Positions 1-32,000 of a stretch of DNA of 32,000 bases are shown in pieces (within the stretch, counting starts at the first letter, position 1; the number at the start of each line of letters is the position of its first letter). The notes below the pieces were generated by a model. It did not search any database. It was not told the origin of the DNA and saw only the letters and a list, made by a program, of their open reading frames with translations. The DNA is taken from the NCBI GenBank assembly GCA_934086185.1, contig CAKOHW010000001.1, positions 75,966 to 107,965 on the forward strand, in the 5' to 3' direction. Origin of the DNA: an uncultured Bacilli bacterium. GTDB taxonomy: Bacteria > Bacillota_I > Bacilli_A > RF39 > UBA660. A program made the position numbers and the translations under genes.

Positions 1-1003
1 CTTGTTTTTCTACTTCAGCTGTTTTATAAAATTCATTTACATTTTTTATAAAATCATTAATATTATGATTTTCTTCATATACGTATTCATTTATTAGTTT
101 GTTTAATTTTGCATTAATATCTTTATATTGTAGTATATTTTCTTTTGTATCATCTATTGCATTTGAATCTATAAAATATGAAAGTGTAAACTCATCTTTT
201 GTATCTTTACTACTATTTGTTATATTTTCATAATCTACAGTTTTGGGATCTCTATATTCAAAATTATCTAGGTTTTCCCATAATGTAAATGCTTTTTTAA
301 AGTTAGGTTCTCTTAGTATCATATTAGTTTTTCTAATAGGATTACGTACTGGTGTACATCCTATTAAACTTTTTATCATTTCTGTATTTTTAAAACCAGA
401 TACTTGTTCATAACATGTTAATATTCTTTCTTTGTAGTTCATACCTTTTTCTGATATTTCATATTCGTTTTCTTCATTCATTTTAAGTTCTATATTTAAT
501 TTTCTATTATCTATTTGTGTTGTTCCTTTATAATTAACTGTTCTTTTTATTTCTTTTTTTGATACTAAATCTATATTTTCAAGTTGCCTTTGCATAAAGT
601 CTTCTAATCTTTTTACTAATGTATATATAAATCTATTTTCATATAAATCTGTAGTATCTTCTTTGTGTACATTTAGTAATTTGTTAGGTCTAACTTCTCC
701 ATTTTCATCAATATCTTGTATATTTTCACTATGTTGTGATAGATGTTTTACAGATTCTTGATTAACACTTTTAATTTTTTCTATTATCATTACATCTTCT
801 TCTTGTATGATAAATCTTCTAGGATTTCTTACTATTTTATCTAAGTTAGGAATAGTATCTTCTAGAACCTCTAACCATGTATAATCTACTTTTGTTTCTT
901 TTATTTCTGATACTGCAGTAAAAGATGCATCCGTCTTTGATAGGAATACATCTAACTCATTTGTATCTAAATTATTCATTACATCTGATATATTTTTTAA
1001 CAT
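1..1003 (-). CDS. DUF2357/McrC-like protein, N-terminal ~334 aa (3' end runs off the window)
   Basis: Absent from the ORF track because it is truncated. My minus-strand translation from ATG 1003-1001 reads MLKNISDVMNNLDTNELDVF...RNPRRFIIQEEDVMIIEKIKSVNQESVKHL...TTDLYENRFIYTLVKRLEDFMQRQL... and stays open to base 1. The RRF..E(E/D)...ES..HL plus D.YENRF block matches my recollection of DUF2357 N-terminal regions of McrC-type partners. It starts 7 nt downstream of the McrB-like gene. Confidence 0.45.
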   Translation of the reverse strand, partial: MLKNISDVMNNLDTNELDVFLSKTDASFTAVSEIKETKVDYTWLEVLEDTIPNLDKIVRNPRRFIIQEEDVMIIEKIKSVNQESVKHLSQHSENIQDIDENGEVRPNKLLNVHKEDTTDLYENRFIYTLVKRLEDFMQRQLENIDLVSKKEIKRTVNYKGTTQIDNRKLNIELKMNEENEYEISEKGMNYKERILTCYEQVSGFKNTEMIKSLIGCTPVRNPIRKTNMILREPNFKKAFTLWENLDNFEYRDPKTVDYENITNSSKDTKDEFTLSYFIDSNAIDDTKENILQYKDINAKLNKLINEYVYEENHNINDFIKNVNEFYKTAEVEKQ

Positions 1004-1010
1004 AATTCAC

Positions 1011-2507
1011 CTATATAGATTTCTTTAATCTAATTATAAATTCTTTACATAGTTTCATATTATCATTACCAAAGTTAACGTTCAAATAATTTATAAATTC
1101 ATCTAATTCATTTTTTATAAATGCTAAATTTAATTGTTCGAACTTTCTTAATATTTTACTTGATATTAAGTAATCAATGGCATCTACTTCAGTACCACCA
1201 CAAGCGATAAATGATGGAACAAACTCTTCTATTTGTCTCATGATACGGTTACCAAAAGATATTCTAAAATGTTCTATTATATATTGATCCAATTCTTCAA
1301 GTTTATTTCTCATTTCACTAGTTAATGGATACTTTTCTTTTGCTTCATCAAATAATTTTTCGAAATGTTCATCTCTAATATTTATTGGATCTGTTTTTTC
1401 AATATCGAATTTTGCACATTTTTCATTAATATCTATTGGCATAGCACGGTCATAAACCTTATCAGTTACCATAAATGTTGAATCATCGTTATTTATTGTT
1501 CCTATATACCACATGTTACCAGGTAATGTAAAATTACCTCCTACAATCTTCTTAGGATCACTTTCCCAAGGAGTTGCAACTAAGTTTACTTTCCATTCGC
1601 TCTTACTTGGCATTTCCATAATAGATAACATTTCAGCAAAGTAATATTCTACACGTGCTATATTCATTTCATCTAGTATTGTTATATATATTTTTTCATT
1701 ATATGTTGCTTCATACATCTTACTTAATAATTCTGTTTCATTAAATCTTTTTGTAAATTCGTTGAAATATCCAAATAACTCTGTTCTATCTCTCCATGAT
1801 GGTTGTACAGATGCTATTATTGAATCATTATTTAAGAATTTACCAAAAGCATATGCAAGTGATGTTTTACCTGTACCAGAAATACCTTGTAAGATTAATA
1901 TTCTTGATGCTCCAAATGCTGAGATAAATAATCTTATTAATTCTGGTGTATAGTAAAGTCCTAATTGACTAGCTGAATATGCTCTAAATTTTTCACATAT
2001 ATCTTTTAGAGTTAATGAATCATCATATTTTGTAGTATCTTTAAATCCTTCATATTTTTGATCAATTTTAGTAAGTTTAAAGAATCTACTTTCACCTTCA
2101 CCAATTTTATTTACTGGATTTCCATCTTCATCTAGTTCTACTTCTTCTTCAGCCATTGCAATTAATTTATCATTTTCTTGTTTTAATTTTATCATGTCAT
2201 AATTTAATTTTTCTACTTCTTCAAGTAAGGCATCTTGCTCATGACCTTTTTTTATTATTCTAATTATTCTTTTAATTACATAGTATATTACAAATGCAAA
2301 TAAACATATTAATAATAACAAGCATATTATTGCAATTATAATAAATACAATATTAACACTACTTTTATATTTATTAACAGTATCTATATAATCTAAAACA
2401 TTAAACATTTTAAATAAACCTTTAAAGAATTCTTTAAATATTGATAATAACCCCTCAAAGAATGGTGTTAAAAAATCCATAAAAAACTTTCCATAATTAT
2501 TACTCAT
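1011..2507 (-). CDS. McrB-family AAA+ NTPase with N-terminal transmembrane anchor and coiled coil
   Basis: Walker A ILILQGISGTGKTSLAYAFG. Walker B/McrB-type block YITILDEMNIARVEYYFAEMLSIME. NMWYIGTINNDDSTFMVTDKVYDRAM resembles the GTMN..D.S...D.AL.RR motif. The N-terminus has the hydrophobic helix VNIVFIIIAIICLLLLICLFAFVIYYVI followed by a basic stretch and a coiled coil (LEEVEKLNYDMIKLKQENDKLIAMAEEE). A strong SD (aggaggt) precedes the ATG. Confidence 0.65.
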   Translation of the reverse strand: MSNNYGKFFMDFLTPFFEGLLSIFKEFFKGLFKMFNVLDYIDTVNKYKSSVNIVFIIIAIICLLLLICLFAFVIYYVIKRIIRIIKKGHEQDALLEEVEKLNYDMIKLKQENDKLIAMAEEEVELDEDGNPVNKIGEGESRFFKLTKIDQKYEGFKDTTKYDDSLTLKDICEKFRAYSASQLGLYYTPELIRLFISAFGASRILILQGISGTGKTSLAYAFGKFLNNDSIIASVQPSWRDRTELFGYFNEFTKRFNETELLSKMYEATYNEKIYITILDEMNIARVEYYFAEMLSIMEMPSKSEWKVNLVATPWESDPKKIVGGNFTLPGNMWYIGTINNDDSTFMVTDKVYDRAMPIDINEKCAKFDIEKTDPINIRDEHFEKLFDEAKEKYPLTSEMRNKLEELDQYIIEHFRISFGNRIMRQIEEFVPSFIACGGTEVDAIDYLISSKILRKFEQLNLAFIKNELDEFINYLNVNFGNDNMKLCKEFIIRLKKSI

Positions 2508-2517
2508 ATTATACCTC

Positions 2518-3699
2518 CTATTTTATCCCCAATAATTTTTTTTCTGATATTTTACTACTCATATCTTTTATAATAAAATTCATAGACATATCTTTCCAAA
2601 CTTCCATATATTTTTCATTAACACTTAAGAAATCTTCTGGAACTACTACATTTTTCATATCCATAAACATATTATAGTTATTTGATTCAAATGTATTTTT
2701 TATATCAATATATAAATCTATATTATTAGATTTATTAAAGTTAACAAAATCATAATCTCCTCTAATTTCTTCAAAATCTACTATAAATTTTATTTTCGAT
2801 AATACTTTTTCATTTTTATTATTAAGTAATTCTAATATTTGTTCATTTGTAAAATTATCTCTTCTTATTGGAAATAATATATTATAATCTATTCCCTTTT
2901 CTAATAATTTAAATGCTGTATAGTAACAATAATCAAATGATATACTAGAGAATCTTCTATACATATCTAGTTTATTAATAACTATTTTAATATCTTTGCC
3001 ATCATAATTATCTAATTCATCTATATCGTATTCATATAATACTTTTAAATATTTATCATTTTTATTTATCTTTATATAAGAATTATGAGATTCAGTAGTC
3101 ATCATATTATTTATGATATCATTAAATTCATTATTTTTTAAAATTATATCTTTTAATTTATTTATTAAAGTTACTAGGTCTTTTTCTTTTTTAAATCTTA
3201 TTTTTTGAAAATTATCTATAACATTATTAATAACTTTTTCTATTTTCTTTGGAGTATCTATATTAGTATACTTATTATTATAAAGTATAATTGATAAATA
3301 TATTAATATTGTTAAATATAGTATTGAACTTTCTTTTTCTTTTATAATACTCTCGTTATTCTTTGAAATATAATAATCTATAATAGACATTAATATACAC
3401 GAAAGTTTTCTATTTATTTTATTATTAAATGTTATATATTCTTTTATTTTATTAAAATCACCAGTATATAAATAATATTTATCATAATATATGTTTATAA
3501 TATTTTTTACTAAATCTGTTAATTCTTCATTTGAGGCCCACAAATTTTGGTCTTGAAATTCTATATTTTTTTCTAATATACTAGAAATATTACATATACT
3601 TTTTTTAGAATATTCAATATATTCACTAATATTATCTTTCATTTTAAGCCTCTTTTCTATTCTACTTAAGATTATATCAAATAATATTTTAGATATCAA
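2518..3699 (-). CDS. hypothetical protein, first gene of the McrB-like operon
   Basis: Long minus-strand ORF with no motif I recognise. The track start at 3699 is a TTG. The in-frame ATG at 3642 (MKDNISEY) has an agagg SD 6 nt upstream and is the more likely start. The stop lies inside the SD region of the downstream McrB-like gene, suggesting an operon. Confidence 0.5.
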   Translation of the reverse strand: MISKILFDIILSRIEKRLKMKDNISEYIEYSKKSICNISSILEKNIEFQDQNLWASNEELTDLVKNIINIYYDKYYLYTGDFNKIKEYITFNNKINRKLSCILMSIIDYYISKNNESIIKEKESSILYLTILIYLSIILYNNKYTNIDTPKKIEKVINNVIDNFQKIRFKKEKDLVTLINKLKDIILKNNEFNDIINNMMTTESHNSYIKINKNDKYLKVLYEYDIDELDNYDGKDIKIVINKLDMYRRFSSISFDYCYYTAFKLLEKGIDYNILFPIRRDNFTNEQILELLNNKNEKVLSKIKFIVDFEEIRGDYDFVNFNKSNNIDLYIDIKNTFESNNYNMFMDMKNVVVPEDFLSVNEKYMEVWKDMSMNFIIKDMSSKISEKKLLGIK

Positions 3700-3766
3700 T
3701 TAGAAAAATGCATAAATACATATTTTATTGAAAGTAAAATAAAACATTTGATAAATAAATCAAATG

Positions 3767-4504
3767 TTAACATATTTCTTTAATGCTATTTAAGAATTTT
3801 TTACTGTTTAAATATAATCCTGTATATCTATCATAATATATGTTTATAAATAAATTTATATTATTTATTACTTTTTCACTTATTTTTAATTCACTTATAC
3901 TACTTATATCTATTAAATAGTATAACCTTAACATTTTTAATGTCTTTTCATCATATATGTATTCGTTAGTGTAACAATTTTTACAAATATAACCACCTAT
4001 ATCTCCATCTATTGTTACTATATCTTTTTTGTTACCACATTTAGAACAACTTTCAAAATTAACTCCTACTCCTAAATAGTCTAATACTTTTAATTCATAT
4101 ATATTTGTTAATACTAGTGGATTTAAGTTATCATTAAGTTTAAGTATAGTATTAATAAATAATTCATATAATTTTTCATAATCATTTGTTTGTTTTGCTA
4201 CTTGGTTAGTTAGTTCTACTATGTAACTTAAATAACTTATTGCTTCTAAACTTGTTTTAATATTATTTAAATCATTTATAACACTAGCTTCTTTAATATA
4301 ATGAAGATTGTTATTATTTTTTTTATTTATTATAAATTTACCATATGTAAATTTTGTAGTATTAACTCTTAGATTACTTTTTAAAGATTTAGCACCTTTA
4401 GCGATACATCCTATAATACCATCTTTTGTAAATATATTAATTATTTTAGATGTATCTCCGTAATCTACTACATTAAATATAAATCCTTCTATACTGTCTA
4501 ACAT
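3767..4504 (-). CDS. recO: DNA repair protein RecO
   Basis: N-terminal OB-fold pattern (EGFIFNVVDYGDTSKIINIFTKDGIIGCIAKGAKS). C-terminal zinc motif CSKCGN...YICKNCY. Conserved position after era-yqzL. Confidence 0.85.
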   Translation of the reverse strand: MLDSIEGFIFNVVDYGDTSKIINIFTKDGIIGCIAKGAKSLKSNLRVNTTKFTYGKFIINKKNNNNLHYIKEASVINDLNNIKTSLEAISYLSYIVELTNQVAKQTNDYEKLYELFINTILKLNDNLNPLVLTNIYELKVLDYLGVGVNFESCSKCGNKKDIVTIDGDIGGYICKNCYTNEYIYDEKTLKMLRLYYLIDISSISELKISEKVINNINLFINIYYDRYTGLYLNSKKFLNSIKEIC

Positions 4505-4632: not shown

Positions 4633-5430
4633 TTATTCACTATTTTTTAAATTTTGTTTTACTATTTCAAATAGATAGTATATATATGGCATTTTATATT
4701 TGTTCATGTAATTGATAATACTTTCTATTTCATTTTTTTTCATTTCTTTATTATTCTTTTTAATTACATTAATAAATTCATTTAATTTTAATTTATTATC
4801 ATACATATGATATTTTTCTAAATAAATGTTTACATTGTCTATTATAAAGTTAGAAAATATTTCATTATTATTTTTTAAATAATATATTAGTAAATTACTA
4901 TCCCATCCTAATACTTGGTAGTATTCATATATATCAAATGGTTTATCATTTACTAAGTCATCACTTATTTTATCTACTACTTCTTTTACCTTATCTAAAT
5001 TTTCTTTATTAAATGTATTTTCTCTTTTTAAGAATTTTCTAAGAGTTGTTTTTTCTTCTTTTGATAAATAATAATGTTCAGTATTGTTTATAAATTTTAT
5101 AAAATTATTATAGTCAATATTATTTGTTTCTATATATTCTTTTATATTATGTTTATCTTCTTTTATGTAATTATTTATTATATTTAGTAGAATTTCTGCT
5201 TCTTTTCTTTTATTAATTTTTTTGTTTTCAGTTTTATTTTTGAATTTTAAGTTATATTCTAAATATAATTTATTAATTTTTTTACTATCTTTTAATTCAT
5301 TTAAATAATCATTAACTATTTCTTTATATTCATTTAAAGTAATATTTTCTTTTTTTATAAATTCTTCTAATTTTTTTAATTCTCCGTTAGATTCGATATA
5401 AAATTTTAAATACTCTTCTTTTTTACTCAT
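4633..5430 (-). CDS. hypothetical Lys/Asn/Glu-rich protein
   Basis: 265-aa ORF. Its ATG overlaps the era stop by 8 nt (gATGAGTAAaa), which suggests translational coupling. No recognisable motif and low-complexity composition. Confidence 0.45.
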   Translation of the reverse strand: MSKKEEYLKFYIESNGELKKLEEFIKKENITLNEYKEIVNDYLNELKDSKKINKLYLEYNLKFKNKTENKKINKRKEAEILLNIINNYIKEDKHNIKEYIETNNIDYNNFIKFINNTEHYYLSKEEKTTLRKFLKRENTFNKENLDKVKEVVDKISDDLVNDKPFDIYEYYQVLGWDSNLLIYYLKNNNEIFSNFIIDNVNIYLEKYHMYDNKLKLNEFINVIKKNNKEMKKNEIESIINYMNKYKMPYIYYLFEIVKQNLKNSE

Positions 5431-6457: not shown

Positions 6458-6826
6458 TTAATATATATTATTATATAAATTTCCTACTTTTAATACTCTA
6501 TTTTCTTCATTAAGAGTATATAGTATTACACTTTTTTCTGGTTCAAAAAATTCTGTTATTACTCTTTCATTTAAATATTTTAAGTCACTTATGTTATTTG
6601 TTCCAACCATTATATATATTTTTTCAAAGTCACCTTTTTTATAACCTTCAGTTATAGCACTTGCTATTGCGATTTGTTCTGCATAAATTCCATCTCTATA
6701 AGTTGCGTTTTTTACAGTAACACCTTTAAAGTATGTTCCATCTTTCATTAAAACAATAGATGCAAAGCATGTTTTTTCATATGGTGAATAAGAATTACTT
6801 AATAAATTTTTTAATTCACTAATCAT
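6458..6826 (-). CDS. cytidine deaminase-fold paralog lacking zinc ligands (probably non-catalytic)
   Basis: Collinear with the adjacent cdd (YSPYEKTCFASIVLMKDGTYFKGVTVKNATYRDGIYAEQIAIASAITEGY). It has YAE in place of CAE and no PC..C motif. The likely start is ATG 6826 (MISELK) with a GGAGGAGGA SD inside the last codons of cdd. The 5' extension in the ORF track is an artefact. Confidence 0.6.
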   Translation of the reverse strand: MISELKNLLSNSYSPYEKTCFASIVLMKDGTYFKGVTVKNATYRDGIYAEQIAIASAITEGYKKGDFEKIYIMVGTNNISDLKYLNERVITEFFEPEKSVILYTLNEENRVLKVGNLYNNIY

Positions 6827-7208
6827 GTAAATCCTCCTCCCCAAATACATGTGGACAAAGTTCACTTAAAATAAATTCTTTTTTATTTCCAGATACATCA
6901 TATGAAATTAATTTTTTATCTAATTCAAAAAATTCTACTATTTGTTGTCTACATAAAAAGCATGGTGTAATTATATGATTAGCTTTACTCATTATATAAA
7001 TACTATCAAAGTCATATTTTGTATACCCGTTTGATATAGCTCTTCCTATCGCTACTTCTTCCGCACACATACCATCTTTAAATGATGGATTTTCTACATT
7101 AACTCCTTTAAAATATGTTCCGTCTTTCATTTTTACTATGCATGCTACTTTGAAATTACTGTAAGGTGTATATGCATTATCAATTATTTTTTTTAATTCT
7201 TCAAACAT
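6819..7208 (-). CDS. cdd: cytidine deaminase
   Basis: CAEEVAIGRAI (C/H-A-E zinc/catalytic motif) and PCFLCRQQIVEF (PC..C). The small homotetramer-type size fits. The ATG at 7208 (MFEELKK) has a gggg SD 7 nt upstream, whereas the track start at 7226 is a TTG. Confidence 0.85.
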   Translation of the reverse strand: MFEELKKIIDNAYTPYSNFKVACIVKMKDGTYFKGVNVENPSFKDGMCAEEVAIGRAISNGYTKYDFDSIYIMSKANHIITPCFLCRQQIVEFFELDKKLISYDVSGNKKEFILSELCPHVFGEEDLHD

Positions 7209-7222
7209 TATTTTTCCCCTTT

Positions 7223-7699
7223 TCAATTATTTAAATCTCTTTTTAATTTTTTACAGGTAATACTTATATCTCTTAAATTATCTTCGGTCTTTAAATTGGC
7301 CTTTGAATATTCTTGAATAGATTTTATATTTTTTAAAGTATTACCAAATTTATCTTTCATCCATTTTTGCGATGGCATTAGCCATACATGAAAGTGATAA
7401 TCACTTTTTTCTTCTTGTACTATATTGTAATTTTCACATATTCCATAACTTTTTAATAGTTTTAAAACTTTTGAAATTAATTTTATTAGTTTTAGTTGTT
7501 CTATTTCAGTTAAATCATTTATAGAAGAAATGTGCTTATTTGCTGAAATTATAATAAAGCCATTTATTGGTAATTCGAAATCTTGTGCTACATTAAATGT
7601 TTCATCTTTATATAAAATATTTATATTATTTTTTTCTAAGAAACAACCTAAACATCCATTTATTTCATAGTCTTTCCCATCATAACTAGTTATATTCAT
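7223..7699 (-). CDS. HIT-family (histidine triad-like) protein
   Basis: N-terminal C..C (GCLGCF) and a C-terminal triad-like YHFHVWLMP. The third His of the H.H.H motif is replaced by Trp. The start overlaps the ybeY stop by 4 nt (7696-7699). Confidence 0.65.
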   Translation of the reverse strand: MNITSYDGKDYEINGCLGCFLEKNNINILYKDETFNVAQDFELPINGFIIISANKHISSINDLTEIEQLKLIKLISKVLKLLKSYGICENYNIVQEEKSDYHFHVWLMPSQKWMKDKFGNTLKNIKSIQEYSKANLKTEDNLRDISITCKKLKRDLNN

Positions 7700-8878: not shown

Positions 8879-10312
8879 TTACTCTTTAGTTTTCTTTAAG
8901 ACTACTACTCCTCTTTTTTTACAACTGTCTTTTCCTTCTGGGCACGTTTTTAATACTTCACATGATGGCCCAAAAGATTTAGATACTAGAGGGGTTACAT
9001 TTGAAGCTAATCTTACCATTTCTTTAACAATATTTCTTATTTCCCATTGTGCTTTATTGCATGTACGCATTCTGCTAATCCATTCTAATGCTCTAGCGTT
9101 TAATGTTGTTGATACATTTAAACAATTCCCAGATAAATAAAAATATACTAAGTCTTCATCTCGAACACCTTGTTCCTTAAAATAATCTACTAATATTTTG
9201 TTATTTTCAAATATTTCTTTGTATTTTAATTCATGGGTTTTCTTTATACTTTCTGGCATTACATAATTATTTAAATTATTTAAAGGACAAAAATCAGGTA
9301 TCATAAGTGATTGCATTCTATGTCTAGTTAAATGTGTTAATACTGCAAGTGATATAGGAAATTCAAACTTATACATTACACATTCTAATTCTCTTTGATC
9401 TTTTTTATTTATTATTGCATCCATAAGTTTATCTTTTATATCTTTATCTACTCTTATCAATTCATATAAAAGAATACTTGCTTCTTCATATGATATGTCA
9501 TATCTATTTTGTAAAGTGCTGACTAATACTTTAAAATCTCCATTTTCTGTATAGTCTAATAAAGTTACTTTATCTATACTTTCTTCGTTACCTTTTAATT
9601 CATTATTATTAACATATTTATCTACAAAAGATAAATTATCTTTATAATAATCTTTGTTTTCTTCTTTTTTAAATTCTTCACTTAAGTATGGAGCATATTC
9701 TAATATTTTATTTTTTAATTTTGTAGCAAATTCTTTAACTTCAGTTATATTACTGTTTTTTCCATATAATAAATCACAAGTCATACGAATTAGTTCGTGA
9801 GCATCACATCCCATAATAATATTGGAATGGTATGAATATGGCAAAATAAATCTAGCATCTTCTATTGGGATTCCTTCATCATTTAATTCTCCATATTTAT
9901 TAAATAAACTTTGCATGTAATTATTATAGATGTTTTTTAATTTTTCATTATTATGTAAAACATTACCATTTTTATCTTTAAAATCTGGTGTATAAAAACC
10001 TGCATTTCTAAAATCTACATTACGTCTTGATTTTATTGTAAATGATGTTAATCTATAACTAATTATAATTTGTTCTATTATAGGTGTAACATCTTCTATT
10101 GCAAAAACTAAATAATCATGTTCTAATATAGATTTATGACCAGAATTTAAAATAAGTTTTATTAACTTTAAATTTTTTTCATAATCATTTCTACTATTAT
10201 AAACCTCTGTTACTGTTCCGTTTGCTCTTGATAAATTACCTGCTGATGCAACTATTTTTACTCTATTTTCTACTTCATCTTTAGTAGAATTACCTAGCAT
10301 TAATACTTTCAT
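8879..10312 (-). CDS. thyX: tandem (fused double) ThyX-like FAD-dependent thymidylate synthase
   Basis: Two ThyX-like halves. The N-half has SILEHDYLVFAIEDVTPIIEQIIISYRLTSFTIKSRR (RHR degenerated to SYR, S....S.R retained) and EDARFILPY. The C-half has HLTRHRMQSL (RHR..S) and ARALEWISRMRTCNKAQWEIRN. It is about twice the normal ThyX length. Confidence 0.65.
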   Translation of the reverse strand: MKVLMLGNSTKDEVENRVKIVASAGNLSRANGTVTEVYNSRNDYEKNLKLIKLILNSGHKSILEHDYLVFAIEDVTPIIEQIIISYRLTSFTIKSRRNVDFRNAGFYTPDFKDKNGNVLHNNEKLKNIYNNYMQSLFNKYGELNDEGIPIEDARFILPYSYHSNIIMGCDAHELIRMTCDLLYGKNSNITEVKEFATKLKNKILEYAPYLSEEFKKEENKDYYKDNLSFVDKYVNNNELKGNEESIDKVTLLDYTENGDFKVLVSTLQNRYDISYEEASILLYELIRVDKDIKDKLMDAIINKKDQRELECVMYKFEFPISLAVLTHLTRHRMQSLMIPDFCPLNNLNNYVMPESIKKTHELKYKEIFENNKILVDYFKEQGVRDEDLVYFYLSGNCLNVSTTLNARALEWISRMRTCNKAQWEIRNIVKEMVRLASNVTPLVSKSFGPSCEVLKTCPEGKDSCKKRGVVVLKKTKE

Positions 10313-11859: not shown

Positions 11860-13491
11860 GTGAATAATATTTTAATTAAAATTAGTTCTAATTTACTTAC
11901 TTTTTCATTAACTAAAAAAAATAATGAAGACTTGAATAATACTAATATTATTAGTACTAAAGAATTATATTTTGATTTAGATTATATAAAAGATAATATA
12001 GAATTAGTAAGTAGTTTTTTAAATACTATAATAATTAAAAATAATATTGATAAAGTTAGAATAGATAATATAATTATTGTGTGTTTAGTATTAGATTTAG
12101 TTAATAATAGTAATATTAAAAAAATACTTATTAGCGAAAATAAATCTATAAATTATGATATATTTTTAAAATTACTTAATAATCAAAATTTAGAATATTT
12201 AAATTGTTATGATATACCTCCTTTCTTATTTGAAAGATTAAATGTAAATAATACTAATTTAAAAATTGATGTTAGAAGTGAAATATTTTTCTTAAGTAAA
12301 TTTATGGAAGATAATAAATTATATAAATATTCTGATATATATTATAAAAAGAATATAGTTATTAATAGTAATTTTAATCCTCAAGAGTTAGAAGACTTTA
12401 AAACATTTATGAGAATAAATAATTGTTTAAAAGAAATACATATTAAAAATTATACTAATGATTTAATTTATTCTATTATAGATATATTTAAAGAGAATAA
12501 TATTAAAGATAAAATTATAGTATTTTATGAAAATAAAAATATAAATATTATAGTTAATTCTATAAATTATTTAAAAAATATTTATAAAGATTATTTAGAG
12601 AGTAATAATATAGATTTTAAAATTGTTTATTCTAAAGAATATAAAAGAAAAAATATGTTTAAACAAATAAATTTTGTTACTTTAAAATATATATGTTTTG
12701 TACTTATTAGTGGTGCTTTAGTATTTTCTGGATTTGATTTTTATAAAAATTATTCTGCTAAGAAGAAAGTTGATGATATAAATAATTCATTAACAGATAT
12801 TTTAGATGATTTTGAATATACTGATGATACTGAAACTAGTGATGTTGAATATATAGATACAGTAGAAAATGAACAAGCAAATAATATTAATTATAATAGT
12901 AATTATTTAGATTCTTATTATGCTACTTATTCTAAAATGTTTGAAGAATTATCAAATATTAATGATGAAACTGTTGGTTGGATAACTGTTAATAAAACTA
13001 AAGTTAATTATCCTGTTGTACAACATACTGATAATAATTACTATTTGAAACATGATTTTAAAAAGAATAATAATGCTTATGGTTGGATTTTTATGGATTA
13101 TAGAAATAATATATATAATATGAGTGATAATACTATACTTTATGGACATAATTCTGTTAAAGATGCAATGATGTTTGGTTCTTTAAGATATACAACTAAT
13201 GAATCTTGGTATAAAAATTCTGAAAATCAAATTATTACGTTTAATACTAAAGTTAAAAATATGAAATGGAGAATATTTTCTATTTATAGAATACCTGTTA
13301 CAAATGATTATTTATATGCTAACTTTGCTGATAGAAATGAATATCAAACTTTCTTAAATACTTTAAAAGGAAGAAGTATATATGATTTTGGAGTTGAAGT
13401 TAATAGTGATGATCATATATTAACTCTTTCTACTTGTGGAACAAGTGTTGCACAAAGAATGGTTATTCATGCAGTATTGATAAAAGAATAA
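11860..13491 (+). CDS. srtB: class B sortase with ~260-aa N-terminal extension and TM anchor
   Basis: The C-terminal ~200 aa read VGWITVNKTKVNYPVVQHTDNNYYLKHDF...ILYGHN...LTLSTC, with catalytic His and TLSTC Cys. TM helix is YICFVLISGALVFSGFDFY. The start codon is GTG. Confidence 0.72.
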   Translation: MNNILIKISSNLLTFSLTKKNNEDLNNTNIISTKELYFDLDYIKDNIELVSSFLNTIIIKNNIDKVRIDNIIIVCLVLDLVNNSNIKKILISENKSINYDIFLKLLNNQNLEYLNCYDIPPFLFERLNVNNTNLKIDVRSEIFFLSKFMEDNKLYKYSDIYYKKNIVINSNFNPQELEDFKTFMRINNCLKEIHIKNYTNDLIYSIIDIFKENNIKDKIIVFYENKNINIIVNSINYLKNIYKDYLESNNIDFKIVYSKEYKRKNMFKQINFVTLKYICFVLISGALVFSGFDFYKNYSAKKKVDDINNSLTDILDDFEYTDDTETSDVEYIDTVENEQANNINYNSNYLDSYYATYSKMFEELSNINDETVGWITVNKTKVNYPVVQHTDNNYYLKHDFKKNNNAYGWIFMDYRNNIYNMSDNTILYGHNSVKDAMMFGSLRYTTNESWYKNSENQIITFNTKVKNMKWRIFSIYRIPVTNDYLYANFADRNEYQTFLNTLKGRSIYDFGVEVNSDDHILTLSTCGTSVAQRMVIHAVLIKE

Positions 13492-19754: not shown

Positions 19755-20888
19755 TTAGTAATTATACTTTCTCTCTAAATCTGTTTTTAAATTTGTATTA
19801 CTCATTTTTAAGTAACCTTTATAACTACCAGAACTTCTTAAATATTTTTCATAGTCATATAAATAAAGATTATCTAATTTTTTATTAATTCTTCTAATAG
19901 TTTTATTATTATACCTTATAAGCAATTTATTATTTTTATCAATTTTAAATACATAGCCTAAAAAACTAATGCCATTATTTAATTTATATATATTAGATTT
20001 AGCATTTGTAGATAGTTTTAATTCATTTATCTTTTTTTCTATTAATTTAAAATTTTCTTTTAATTTTTCTTTATCTGTATCTATAATTAATAAATCATCC
20101 ATATACCTAATATAATATTTATATTTTAATTCATCTTTAATAAAGTGATCTACATCATTTAAATAAAATATTGCTAGTATTTGACTTGTCATATTTCCTA
20201 TTGGTAAGCCTTTATTATATTCATATAATGGAATTTCATTAATTGTTTTTATTTTTTTAGTTTTTTCATTATCACTTATGTTTAGACTTTTTATATAATT
20301 TATTTTTTCTTTTTTTAGAAATTCTATTCTTTCATTAACATATTTTTCATTAGTAGAATTAATAATTATTTTTAATAGACTTAATGCTTTTTTATCTTTT
20401 ATATATTTTTTTATTTTTTTGAATATGATTTCGTGATCAATATTATAAAAGTATTTTTTTATATCAATTTTTAATATATATATATCTTTATTTAAATATT
20501 TTAATTTATTTATATATTCTATAAATTTTTTAAAAGCGTAACTACTTCCTTTATTAATTCTGGTTGCAACATTAGTATCAATTAATTTACTTTCAAGGCA
20601 TGGTAAAAGTATATATTTACTTACTAAGTGATTTACCAATTTATCAGGAATATTTTCACTCATTATTATTCTATATTTTGGATCTCTTATCATAAATATT
20701 CTATAATAACTAAATTTATACTCGCCTTTATAAAGTTTTGTTAAAATATTAAAAATGTTAGTGTTTAAATTCAATCTAAAATTATAAACTGCCTCTTTAT
20801 TTTTACAATTTCTTTTTATTTTATGAAACATATTTAAAGCATGTTCATAAACTAATATTTCATTATATATATTATCAATTCTTTTCAT
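19755..20888 (-). CDS. DGR-type reverse transcriptase
   Basis: RT motifs are RIIMSENIPDKLVNHLV, ILKIDIKKYFYNIDH, LPIGNMTSQILAIFYLN (the DGR-diagnostic IGxxxSQ in place of the group II intron motif) and YIRYMDDLLII (YMDD). There is no maturase or endonuclease domain. It lies next to the TR/VR pair. Confidence 0.9.
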   Translation of the reverse strand: MKRIDNIYNEILVYEHALNMFHKIKRNCKNKEAVYNFRLNLNTNIFNILTKLYKGEYKFSYYRIFMIRDPKYRIIMSENIPDKLVNHLVSKYILLPCLESKLIDTNVATRINKGSSYAFKKFIEYINKLKYLNKDIYILKIDIKKYFYNIDHEIIFKKIKKYIKDKKALSLLKIIINSTNEKYVNERIEFLKKEKINYIKSLNISDNEKTKKIKTINEIPLYEYNKGLPIGNMTSQILAIFYLNDVDHFIKDELKYKYYIRYMDDLLIIDTDKEKLKENFKLIEKKINELKLSTNAKSNIYKLNNGISFLGYVFKIDKNNKLLIRYNNKTIRRINKKLDNLYLYDYEKYLRSSGSYKGYLKMSNTNLKTDLERKYNY

Positions 20889-21222
20889 CTTTATAATCTA
20901 AACTATATATAATATTTCTAATTTCACCTAACATTTTTACGCATGATAAAAATCTTTTCTTTATTATTAATTTTTTTGTAAAAATCACTTCTAAATAAAA
21001 GTCTATCATCATAATATTTGATTTTATATCATTAATATATTTTTGTCTAATGTTTCCTTTATTAATACTAACTTTTGTAGTATTTTTTATCATTTCATAA
21101 TATTCGTCTATTATTTTTGTTCTTAATTGTTTTTCATTTTTAGGAAAAGATGGCACTATATATTGTTCAAAATATACTAGGAATGCTTTTTCTTTGCCTA
21201 ATACTATAAATTTATCATTCAT
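20875..21222 (-). CDS. avd: Avd-like accessory variability determinant (small helical bundle protein)
   Basis: 115 aa, basic, with a helical heptad-like pattern. It overlaps the RT start by 14 nt, the typical Avd position immediately 5' of the RT. The assignment rests on size, position and composition, not on a strong motif. Confidence 0.6.
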   Translation of the reverse strand: MNDKFIVLGKEKAFLVYFEQYIVPSFPKNEKQLRTKIIDEYYEMIKNTTKVSINKGNIRQKYINDIKSNIMMIDFYLEVIFTKKLIIKKRFLSCVKMLGEIRNIIYSLDYKDEKN

Positions 21223-21835: not shown

Positions 21836-22210
21836 TTATTCCATTATTATTTGTTGAATTGATTTTATCAAATTCAACATTTCGTCACTTTTCATAATAT
21901 CCAAATCTTTTGACAAGATTAATTCATTTATTTTTTTTAATTTTGTTTTTTCATCAATATTATCTGGGATGATAATTTTATAATCGATGCTTTTTTGTTT
22001 TAATAATTCTTCATATTTTGCTATTGAATTTTTTGGAAAACCACATTTATCACAAAAATTTGAAAATTTGGTTAATCTAAAATCAAACATTTCATTCAGT
22101 AATATTGCATCACTATCTAATGCAATATAAAAGTTTCCACATTCAAATAGATATATCGTTGTTTCATTTTTTTCTTTTAAACTTAAATACTTATCATATA
22201 TTTTACTCAT
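21836..22210 (-). CDS. stand-alone MutS domain I (mismatch-binding domain)-like protein, DGR accessory candidate
   Basis: IYDKYLSLKEKNETTIYLFECGNFYIALDSDAILLNEMFDFRLTKF...CGFPKNSIAKYEELLKQKSIDYKII is collinear with the MutS N-terminus as I recall it (M..QYL.lK......lLfFR.GDFYE.F..DA......L.I.LT.R....PM.G.P......Y...L...G..V.I). The Phe of the F-x-E mismatch wedge is kept (NFY) and the Glu is replaced by Ile. It is only 124 aa, with no connector, clamp or ATPase domains. Confidence 0.7.
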   Translation of the reverse strand: MSKIYDKYLSLKEKNETTIYLFECGNFYIALDSDAILLNEMFDFRLTKFSNFCDKCGFPKNSIAKYEELLKQKSIDYKIIIPDNIDEKTKLKKINELILSKDLDIMKSDEMLNLIKSIQQIIME

Positions 22211-22385: not shown

Positions 22386-24260
22386 TTAACTCTCCGTTAC
22401 TTTATATGGATTTCCTATTGTTCCATCTCCACTTGCTATTTGTGCACCAGTGGCTAAAGTAACTGCGGGACGGGCACCAAAGTTGCTGTCATCGTAGACG
22501 CCGTCGTTGTTCAAGCTGCCATCATCGTTCACGCTGAACGCGAGGTCGTCGTAGTCGTCGAAGCGGGAGCGAGACAAAGACCAATAATATGATTGTGCAT
22601 TGTCATATAAATAATAGAATTTATTAGAATAACCAGCCTGTCCTCCTGCGTATGCTATTTCATCTGCTGTTAATGTTCCTATATAATCACTTATGCTGTC
22701 TTCTTCACTTGAACATTTTAATGTTGCGTTTCTTTCTACACCTTTTCCCCATAATCTTTTTCCTGCTGTGTAATAATAAGTTCCATAATCATTTTCTATC
22801 TGTGTTACTTCTGCGTCTGTTAATAACACTCCAGTTGATGAATTATATCTATAATTATCACTTCCACCTAAGCACCATTTTTCATTTTTTAATAATGATT
22901 TCTTATTTTCTAATCCACTTGATGTATACCATGCTTTTAATGTTGTATATAATCCTCCACTATAATTTTTATAATCTGCGTAATATTTGCTATTAATTGT
23001 TTTATAACCATATGCTATTGTTGCTCCATTATTTATTAAAGCTGATTTGGTATCTGATGATGTTATTGTACTACATAATCCTTCTTTGGCTAAGATTATT
23101 TTTATAGATCCATCGCCTTCAACACGTACTATTCTCCAACACATATTATTAAATTCTATGTAATTGTCTTTGACTCCACCTCTATAATAATAAGAGTCGC
23201 CATAATCATCAGTTGTTGCCGATAATGTTGCTTCTGTCGAATATGATACTGCTGACACTCTTTTTGCTTTCATTGTTATTGAACTTGTACTGCTTGCTGG
23301 TGCTGTTGTTACTTTATATATACTTGATAAATTTGTTGTTGTTTTTTGAGTATTTGTACTTGCTGAATTACTACTTGCACTTGTTGATACTATATATTTT
23401 CCTACCAATGTTGTATTACATGTTCCATCATTGTATTTACATGTTGTAACTCCTGTTAATGTGAATTTACCAGTACTTTCATCTATTGTATACCCTGTTC
23501 CATATGTCCAGTAATATCCTTGATATGTTGTTGTTATGCTTACTGAACTTTCGCTTGTTGCTTCATCTACTTGATCAGTATAATATTTATAACTTACTGC
23601 TTGTGCAGGTGTTGTTAATGGAGTTGCACTAAATGTTGTTCCATTTTTTGCTAATTTTGCATTGTTTATTATTGCATATGATAATGATGTTTGTTCATAT
23701 GGCATGAATTCTCCATTACTGTTTTTACCAAATATTTGTAATTTTGCTTGTAATACTTTTCCCATATCTACACTTTGATCTGTATTTGTATCTTTATATG
23801 TAAATTTAAATGTGTATGTATGAGTTTTTTTAGGTTCTATTTCATTTGTTATTAATTGTTTTATTCCATTTGGAAATGTTGTTTCTGTTGTTACTTCATT
23901 ACATGCTATTGTTCCATCTGTTGTGCAATTTAATGTATATTTAACATCATCTACTCTTTCAAATGTATTTATTACATCTATTAAATATACTCCATATTCT
24001 ACATTTGCATTTCCTTCGTTTTTTACTGTGAATGTTTTAGTATATACTGTATCACTTGGTAATAAGTTTTCTCCTCCAATTACTCCATCACTTCCATCGC
24101 CATATACTAATTTTAAATCTGCTGTTGTTACACTGATGCTCTTATCGTTAGTGTTTCCTTGTATTCTTGTTAAAAAGTATGCATATGTTAATCCTAACAA
24201 TGCTAATAATACTATTGTTATTCCTACTACACTAACTATGATTTTTTGTTTTCTATTCAT
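22386..24260 (-). CDS. secreted DGR target protein: SipW/TasA-type signal and N-domain, Thr/Ser-rich linker, C-terminal lectin-like VR domain
   Basis: The likely start is ATG 24260 (MNRKQK) with an aggagg SD; the track extends it to 24293. The signal region IVLLALLGLTYAYFLT resembles the SipW-dependent (TasA/camelysin-type) signal motif ..GTYAYF.. as I recall it. The middle holds S/T-rich tracts (STSASSNSASTNTQKTTTN, APASSTSS). At the C-terminus, ..LTADEIAYAGG...YYWSLS...GARPAV resembles the DUF1566/C-type-lectin-fold ends used by DGR targets. The VR is followed by a 24-aa tail (TLATGAQIASGDGTIGNPYKVTES). Confidence 0.85.
   Translation of the reverse strand: MNRKQKIIVSVVGITIVLLALLGLTYAYFLTRIQGNTNDKSISVTTADLKLVYGDGSDGVIGGENLLPSDTVYTKTFTVKNEGNANVEYGVYLIDVINTFERVDDVKYTLNCTTDGTIACNEVTTETTFPNGIKQLITNEIEPKKTHTYTFKFTYKDTNTDQSVDMGKVLQAKLQIFGKNSNGEFMPYEQTSLSYAIINNAKLAKNGTTFSATPLTTPAQAVSYKYYTDQVDEATSESSVSITTTYQGYYWTYGTGYTIDESTGKFTLTGVTTCKYNDGTCNTTLVGKYIVSTSASSNSASTNTQKTTTNLSSIYKVTTAPASSTSSITMKAKRVSAVSYSTEATLSATTDDYGDSYYYRGGVKDNYIEFNNMCWRIVRVEGDGSIKIILAKEGLCSTITSSDTKSALINNGATIAYGYKTINSKYYADYKNYSGGLYTTLKAWYTSSGLENKKSLLKNEKWCLGGSDNYRYNSSTGVLLTDAEVTQIENDYGTYYYTAGKRLWGKGVERNATLKCSSEEDSISDYIGTLTADEIAYAGGQAGYSNKFYYLYDNAQSYYWSLSRSRFDDYDDLAFSVNDDGSLNNDGVYDDSNFGARPAVTLATGAQIASGDGTIGNPYKVTES
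22461..22585 (-). repeat. DGR variable repeat (VR) inside the 3' end of the target gene
   Basis: Encodes WSLSRSRFDDYDDLAFSVNDDGSLNNDGVYDDSNFGARPAV. It differs from the TR only at TR-adenine positions: 13 A>G, 4 A>T and 2 A>C on the sense strand. The 3' end carries a GC-rich IMH-like tract, GGTGCCCGTCCCGC, identical in TR and VR. Homology stops abruptly at both ends. Confidence 0.92.
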
Positions 24261-24319
24261 ATTAACTCCTCCTAAAAAATAAAATACCAACAACTTCGTG
24301 TATTGTATTTTCTAAAATA

Positions 24320-31974: not shown

Positions 31975-32000
31975 ATTTTTACCTCTTTCTTTTTTTTATT

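Follow-up and report, generated by a model that had tools for sequence, protein, structure and literature searches.

We analysed a 32,000-nt stretch of DNA (hereafter the window) from the very G+C-poor metagenome-assembled genome (about 16-32% G+C per kb) of a gut Bacilli bacterium. On the minus strand, downstream of recO, it carries three tightly packed co-directional open reading frames (ORFs), here called g1, g2 and g3, which the original prediction had read as a McrBC-like defence operon with a membrane-anchored McrB-family NTPase. The genes, signals and protein segments of this locus are as follows:

3767-4504, minus strand: recO (RecO_N/RecO_C)
3736..3768, minus strand: AT-rich hairpin and T-run directly behind the stop codon of recO (aacatttgat-ttattt-atcaaatgtt-ttatttt), read from the sequence
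3671..3699, minus strand: promoter-like site of the operon (TTGATA, 17 nt, TG-extended TATAAT, i.e. TGnTATAAT), the top-scoring site of the scan with 11/12 matches
2518..3642, minus strand: g1, cytoplasmic, 374 aa; its predicted fold is a degenerate TIM barrel of the EAL-like kind
1011..2507, minus strand: g2, a membrane-anchored McrB-like AAA+ protein of 498 aa, probably a GTPase
2394..2495, minus strand: Phe-rich amphipathic N-terminal segment of g2 (residues 5-38), predicted to lie outside the cytoplasm; hydrophobic moment 1.5-1.9
2274..2351, minus strand: single transmembrane helix of g2 (residues 53-78); Kyte-Doolittle 19-residue maximum 3.63 at residue 53
2139..2243, minus strand: heptad-like helical linker of g2 (residues 89-123) between the transmembrane helix and the NTPase; a/d positions L,V,L,M,L,N,L,A
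1863..1886, minus strand: Walker A motif GISGTGKT of g2 (residues 208-215), invariant and aligned to the McrB P-loop
1662..1676, minus strand: Walker B motif LDEMN of g2 (residues 278-282), invariant, of the McrB type, DEINRA-like
1482..1493, minus strand: signature NNDD of g2 (residues 339-342), invariant; readable as NxD followed by D, or as NxxD
1..1003, minus strand: g3, McrC-N-like with DUF2357 only; 334 of its 363 aa lie in the window, and the last 29 aa and the stop codon end 89 nt beyond position 1

The spacing of these genes is as the original prediction had described it. The g1 stop codon overlaps the Shine-Dalgarno sequence of g2 (TAGGAGGtataatATG), the gap between g2 and g3 measures 7 nt, and the promoter-like site lies 29 nt upstream of the g1 ATG (3642), which has AAGAGG as its Shine-Dalgarno sequence. 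The hairpin behind recO was not flagged by the terminator scan, which demands G+C-rich stems; it is probably the recO terminator, setting the operon apart from that gene. Because of this hairpin with its T-run and the operon's own promoter-like site, we regard co-transcription with recO as unlikely. On longer related contigs g3 is followed by another hairpin with a T-run and then by a small convergent ORF, so that g1-g2-g3 reads as a complete transcription unit of its own. The observation underlying the original prediction is real and well above chance.

The proposal of a defence operon depended on a nuclease half of g3, which was expected to lie beyond the window. We took the full length of g3 from three contigs (L001-L003) that reach beyond the window edge and, over 4.6 kb, match the window with 99.5-99.8% identity. 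The shared 334 residues are identical in all of them, and the stop codon comes 29 codons later, giving a protein of 363 aa. Since g3 stops there, it has no room for a nuclease. Its DUF2357-like character was borne out by a match to Pfam DUF2357 (PF09823) at 6.4e-11, with 42 bits against a cut-off of 23. Close homologues from Bacilli all measure 356-394 aa and match PF09823 only; among the g3 orthologues from related loci, 60 of 78 match DUF2357 and none (0/78) matches any nuclease family. Clostridial forms of 600-900 aa owe their extra part to a long K/E/A/R-rich helical tail only, and these tails match coiled-coil families. One such tail (L068:7560-9734) illustrates their character: they comprise about 350 aa, nearly all K, E, A and R, of the single-alpha-helix or coiled-coil type, and their length is highly variable (600-895 aa for the proteins overall), as that of a spacer or ruler would be. 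The AlphaFold2 model of g3 (predicted local distance difference test score, pLDDT, 77; predicted template modelling score, pTM, 0.49) contains long beta-hairpins together with a C-terminal helix of 48 aa, and its residues 67-116 are poorly predicted yet conserved.

The assignment of g2 to the McrB family, and its membrane anchor, held throughout. The protein carries the motifs GISGTGKT, ILDEMNIARVEYYF and GTINNDDS, and across the family alignment GISGTGKT, LDEMNIARVEYYF and GTINNDDS are invariant; with HMMER, its NNDD aligns gap-free to the NTAD of E. coli McrB. It has a weak AAA_5 match in Pfam, matches the McrB equivalog NF008457 of NCBIfam at 3e-6, and finds in E. coli McrB its only sequence relative in the PDB (1e-7). 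The transmembrane helix (mean Kyte-Doolittle value 3.6) is followed by a positive cluster, KRIIRIIKKGH. Because this cluster lies C-terminal of the helix, we infer from the positive-inside rule that the NTPase domain is cytoplasmic and that the Phe-rich amphipathic first 45 residues are outside. Conserved positions of the outer segment are F8, F12, P15, F16, F17, G19, F35 and N36, while E97, L101, N102, L108 and K114 are invariant in the linker. Of the three elements previously ascribed to this N-terminus, the amphipathic segment and the one strong transmembrane helix stood; the coiled coil was not significant in a crude heptad shuffle test, its a/d pattern being readable. The lack of a DNA reader was likewise confirmed, as the N-terminal 125 residues are made up of the amphipathic segment, the helix and the linker, with no DNA-binding family matched.

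Compared with E. coli McrBC (PDB 6HZ4, 6UT6, 7VSR), the locus therefore shares the AAA+ GTPase core with the same Walker A/B and N..D signature, and the partner with a DUF2357 N-domain, which in McrC activates the ring. It differs in that a transmembrane anchor replaces the N-terminal DNA-binding domain of McrB, that g3 has no PD-(D/E)xK nuclease, that a third conserved subunit is present, and that its genomic partners are envelope genes and not restriction-modification genes. Canonical type IV restriction by McrBC was rejected as an explanation, neither the nuclease nor the DNA-reader features being found. The CoCoNuT systems described by Bell, Makarova, Wolf and Koonin (eLife 2024, PMC11090510) are alike in having a McrB-like GTPase with helical or coiled-coil additions, and McrC homologues that often lack an active nuclease. 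However, a further nuclease (HEPN, PLD or similar) and RNA-binding domains are a constant part of CoCoNuTs and are missing here, and CoCoNuTs lack a membrane anchor; lacking an accessory nuclease, the locus was not assigned to this class.

The genomic partners became apparent from the family as a whole, which is large and widespread. It comprises at least 8000 database proteins (8000 of 8000 scored candidates were significant), and at least 591 loci were confirmed in GTDB species representatives; the hosts listed are uncultured Bacilli, Erysipelotrichaceae, Oscillospiraceae, Ruminococcus, Acutalibacteraceae and Christensenellaceae. Window g2 is 49-81% identical to family members, the closest relatives reaching 78-81% with all motifs invariant. 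The top 120 matches are full-length with at least 52% identity, and all but three cover at least 98% of the query. Between Bacilli and Clostridia, identity remains at about 50% along the entire protein, the N-terminal membrane module included.

For a comparison of neighbourhoods, 80 related loci were kept and their neighbouring ORFs clustered, which gave three layouts. In 78 of the 80, g3 follows g2, and recO adjoins the pair in none (0/80). Group A, the window's own type (28 loci), has g1-g2-g3 followed by a fourth gene, c5, for a membrane protein of about 420-450 aa with a cytoplasmic head, a transmembrane helix, DxDxDG repeats and, at its C-terminus, a beta-domain. Group B (17 loci) is a cluster of about ten genes: a large surface protein, the signal peptidase SipW, small secreted proteins, two families called c9 and c7, g2, g3, a second SipW and more secreted proteins. 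In group C (36 loci, mostly Clostridia), two or three paralogous secreted proteins and SipW precede g2 and a long g3, and two or three more paralogues follow. The SipW-type peptidases exceed the cut-off of TIGR02228 (archaeal-type signal peptidase I) with 75, 57 and 87 bits against 51.85. A hidden Markov model built from them places SipW within 6 kb in 17/17 group B and 34/36 group C loci, that is, in 51 of the 53 loci outside the window's subgroup. The sampled proteins of the main neighbour families, together with g1-g3, gave no match to a nuclease family.

The paralogous secreted neighbours begin with a hydrophobic stretch ending in ...(S/T)ATYAWF(T/S), which we take to resemble the SipW-cognate signal peptides of TasA (GGGTWAAFND) and CalY (GGGTFAYFSD). 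The loci of relatives are thus reminiscent of tapA-sipW-tasA of Bacillus and sipW-bsaA of Clostridium perfringens: a SipW gene stands beside secreted beta-rich proteins, whose signal peptides presumably end in the same TasA/CalY-like aromatic motif. Unlike the present clusters, those matrix-fibre operons have no NTPase, and growth of fibres of the TasA/SipW type is thought to need no cytoplasmic energy. A further difference is that the secreted proteins found here match neither the TasA nor the camelysin family above threshold.

These neighbourhoods bear directly on the idea of defence, of which one form does not depend on a nuclease: the ring might sense an infection cue, possibly via g1, and kill or arrest the cell by disturbing its membrane, or block the entry of DNA. 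Membrane effectors are common in defence systems, the flanks of the locus vary among relatives, and the nearest characterised relatives, McrBC, are restriction systems, as CoCoNuTs are predicted to be (PMC11090510). Moreover, g2 matches the PADLOC candidate model PDC-M26A at 1e-39. Yet this is a single subunit of an untested multi-gene candidate, PDC-M26, of which we found no description in the literature; PADLOC's own McrB models do not match g2, and g1 and g3 have no PADLOC match at all. No known effector domain is present in g1, g2 or g3, the conservation of g2 (about 50% between classes) and its spread (at least 591 species) are far above those of a typical defence gene, and the link to clusters of SipW and secreted proteins is consistent. 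The immediate context in the window species is also housekeeping in nature. The operon has the era-recO block as its neighbour on one side and, on the other, a secreted-protein gene, a GH31 gene and an ABC transporter. The exact g2 protein was found on 22 contigs read, from several human gut samples, with neighbours alike in all those shown. No defence genes adjoin the operon, the sole defence-type gene in the window being a reverse transcriptase about 16 kb away. We therefore consider an anti-phage or abortive-infection role unlikely, and the defence reading of the original prediction was not upheld. The findings that it had named as speaking against itself were largely observed: a nuclease is absent outright, and in relatives the pair is embedded in conserved envelope clusters.

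A McrB-like branch with these features has in fact been named. In the paper on CoCoNuTs (PMC11090510), a class called CoCoPALM is described in three sentences and left for a later paper: a large clade of McrB-like GTPases fused to an FtsB-like transmembrane and coiled-coil domain, usually with coiled coils on both the McrB and McrC homologues, and associated with genes of the signal-peptidase family. The clade is placed there in the NxD branch, whose NxD motif usually precedes an E or another D. The window locus is most likely a reduced variant of this class. Its g2 is a McrB-like GTPase with an N-terminal transmembrane and helical module, and the NNDD signature fits NxD with a second D, although it also aligns gap-free to NTAD. 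The McrC homologue has a helical or coiled-coil extension, represented by the modelled C-terminal helix of g3 and by the Clostridial tails, and the association with signal peptidases holds at the family level. The window locus differs in having no signal peptidase, the defining neighbour, nearby; in its first gene of EAL-like fold, which PMC11090510 does not mention; and in lacking the fourth gene (c5) of its sister loci.

The FtsB-like designation of the N-terminal module by Bell et al. (PMC11090510) raises another possibility, namely that through its anchor the NTPase is recruited to the membrane at the divisome or forespore as an accessory of cell division or sporulation, the link to secreted proteins being secondary. 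The position of the window operon among yqfD, spoIIP, era and recO would agree with this, and high conservation suits a cellular function. Against it, g2 gave no Pfam match to DivIC/FtsB at E-values up to 1, the sporulation and recO neighbours are conserved in none of the 80 related loci, and the partners that are conserved are SipW and the AWF-signal proteins. We regard such a role as quite improbable.

The remaining gene, g1, had been described as a protein of 374-393 aa without a recognisable domain. Because the TTG further upstream (position 3699) forms the -35 box in the promoter-like site and the homologues are all about 375 aa long, the 393-aa form starting there was rejected and the 374-aa form starting at the ATG retained. 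No match was obtained in Pfam (EAL included), PADLOC or NCBIfam, and no transmembrane segment was found. The AlphaFold2 model (pLDDT 89.8, pTM 0.88) was compared with the PDB by Foldseek, and the top 44 matches are all EAL domains, among them RocR, FimX, YahA and Bd1971 (probability 1.0, top E-value 3.6e-4, TM-score up to 0.50 on the target). A narrow g1 profile had no match among PDB sequences, and a broad profile of g1 and c7 matches a designed TIM barrel at 1.4e-7.

For a deeper g1 profile, 73 representative clusters among 1.84 billion proteins (all of about 350-395 aa) were combined with the copies from the loci. With shallow alignments a first hhalign comparison of g1 with c7, the group B family encoded directly upstream of g2, gave no match; the deeper profile gave 99.4% (E 1.6e-21, 298 columns). 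The same profile reached 96.6% with a 380-aa protein of a further Bacilli subgroup. As a second subgroup has a homologue of the g1 family at the corresponding position, g1 is, by this profile homology, a conserved third partner of the system, in keeping with the earlier suggestion that the first gene belongs to it. It is best described, all these results considered, as a degenerate EAL-like barrel, and is probably non-catalytic: in the colinear hhalign alignment with EAL, strands of g1 fall on the EAL motif strands, and the catalytic residues are not conserved.

Clostridial loci have no g1, and 11 of the 36 have an upstream gene encoding a true EAL domain (Pfam 1.7e-50) together with HD_5, an HD-GYP-like domain (loci L031, L035, L039, L043, L044, L050, L053, L058, L060, L062 and L073). 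In these proteins the EAL motifs look partly degenerate, with no E in the EAL box, DNYG for DDFG and KGVD for EGVE, which suggests a receptor of cyclic di-GMP (c-di-GMP) and not an enzyme. A precedent is offered by FimX and LapD, degenerate EAL receptors of c-di-GMP that control pili and adhesins. The predicted fold of g1 matches EAL domains, FimX included, its catalytic residues are not conserved, it is encoded with what may be a surface-structure machine, and Clostridial loci carry the true EAL/HD-GYP gene. In contrast to FimX and LapD, g1 is undetectable as an EAL domain by sequence, and c-di-GMP-binding residues are not identifiable in it.

Taken together, we think it probable that the locus encodes a McrBC-derived motor at the cytoplasmic membrane, which has lost its nuclease and DNA reader and serves in envelope or fibre assembly. 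Its most likely function is that of a GTP-driven, possibly c-di-GMP-linked, envelope or fibre-assembly module. The structural basis for the hexamer and for insertion of the McrC finger comes from work on E. coli McrBC (Niu et al. 2020, as cited in PMC11090510), and by analogy with it g2 would form a hexameric ring under the membrane, held by six transmembrane helices and their linkers. The finger of g3 would insert into this ring and stimulate hydrolysis of GTP via the N..D motif. Conformational work might then pass through the linker and the transmembrane helix to the extracytoplasmic amphipathic segment, which could act on membrane-embedded, signal-anchored precursors or on SipW, leading to processing, extraction and release, or polymerisation. 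As a regulatory or scaffold subunit, possibly a sensor of a nucleotide of the c-di-GMP type, g1 would gate the motor. In the window species the likely substrates would be two paralogous proteins of 653 and 635 aa, described below. A more specific version, in which the McrB ring and McrC finger are the engine of a hitherto unrecognised, SipW-dependent surface-fibre machine of Gram-positive bacteria, g1 couples it to cyclic-dinucleotide signalling and the window holds its minimal three-gene core, is put forward tentatively and seems to us possible, though doubtful.

Several results weigh against the assembly role. SipW lies within 6 kb in only 2 of the 28 group A loci, and none was found in the 32-kb window or in 10 kb on either side of it. 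Since SipW is missing near the window and so rare in its subgroup, the envelope link for this subgroup is drawn from orthology and from the secreted proteins next to the operon. The secreted neighbours themselves belong to no Pfam or NCBIfam family and do not match the SipW-cognate signal model, a profile of the AWF-signal proteins found no match among PDB sequences, and it is from the signal-peptide motif only that we infer their pilin-like nature. The flanking genes vary even among close relatives, and PDC-M26A, which g2 matches at 1e-39, is a model of a defence candidate. Between g1 and the true EAL protein of the Clostridial loci the hhalign match is weak (20%). A Foldseek search of the PDB with the g3 model returned no McrC and no significant match, only spurious TolC-like ones, and the link of g3 to McrC rests for this reason on the Pfam profile. 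Finally, CoCoPALM is an uncharacterised class: no follow-up was found in the literature, and the supplement text of PMC11090510 has no CoCoPALM entries.

Because SipW is adjacent in so few of its loci, the window subgroup is a reduced form of the system. In the window species the reduction goes further, as c5, present in almost all group A loci, is absent, with no remnant downstream of g3. It could be asked whether the operon is a decaying, now functionless remnant of a larger CoCoPALM cluster, from which c5, SipW and the pilin-like genes have disappeared. The traceless absence of c5 and the lack of a nearby SipW would fit such decay. Nevertheless, none of the three ORFs is disrupted, and a promoter, a terminator and Shine-Dalgarno sequences accompany them; four contigs of different sample origin carry an identical g3, and the 78-81% identity of g2 to its closest relatives with invariant motifs points to purifying selection, so that we give this explanation very little credence.

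Regarding the candidate substrates of the proposed assembly motor, the gene after g3 encodes the 653-aa protein, with the N-terminus ...LSLTYGYYL (L001:13346-15307). By hhalign, the N-terminal domain of this protein is a homologue of the beta-domain at the C-terminus of c5 (97.4%). The paralogue lies within the window:

22386-24293, minus strand: 635-aa paralogue of the 653-aa secreted protein, sharing the c5 beta-domain

Over its N-terminus this paralogue has a sub-threshold match to the camelysin/TasA family (Peptidase_M73). Both proteins are large and secreted, with TasA-like "LTYGYY" N-termini, and the first varies among strains, being 653 or 663 aa long. Outside the window, about 8-10 kb beyond position 32000, lie genes for a type IV pilus or for competence (T2SSF/PilC-like and prepilin peptidase A24; L085:85-2471), and therefore the organism also has a conventional pilus machine.

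The other identified genes of the window are of housekeeping or sporulation type (era, cdd, ybeY, thyX, yqfD, spoIIP, polC, RNase HII, cvpA, mscL), the exceptions being one reverse transcriptase and several ORFs without a family match. Among the latter is a 265-aa Lys/Asn-rich protein (4633-5430, minus strand) between era and recO, overlapping the era stop codon. Cytidine deaminase is encoded as two tandem overlapping ORFs of 135 aa (6458-7226, minus strand), both dCMP_cyt_deam in the contig annotation. ThyX has 477 aa with two Thy1 stretches (8879-10312, minus strand) and looks like a duplicated or fused flavin-dependent thymidylate synthase. A 543-aa protein with a C-terminal sortase domain (11860-13491, plus strand) is the product of the sole long plus-strand gene in that part of the window, in a stretch of 14-16% G+C. 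The reverse transcriptase, of 377 aa (RVT_1 3.9e-17), overlaps a 115-aa ORF (19755-21222, minus strand), and the pair is placed between polC and a 124-aa ORF with MutS domain I only (21836-22210, minus strand), possibly a truncated mutS. The reverse transcriptase matches the generic RT, UG4 and UG17 models of PADLOC and, since an Rfam search of the window gave no RNA of a group II intron, may be of the defence type or part of a retron.

McrBC is a textbook GTP-dependent restriction enzyme, and here a branch of it without DNA reader and nuclease is spread over gut Bacilli and Clostridia (at least 591 species), where it has a membrane anchor and accompanies signal peptidases and secreted fibre-like proteins. 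Previously, the CoCoPALM class was known by name only. New in this study are the conserved third subunit with its EAL-like fold, the true EAL/HD-GYP genes in Clostridial loci, which hint at control by c-di-GMP, and the reduced three-gene subtype. A pair of McrB and DUF2357 genes alone is insufficient evidence for annotating a restriction or defence system. If the proposed role in envelope or fibre assembly is true, the family would show clearly how a defence motor can be turned to the building of the cell surface, and would provide the first energy-consuming component tied to fibres of the TasA/SipW type.

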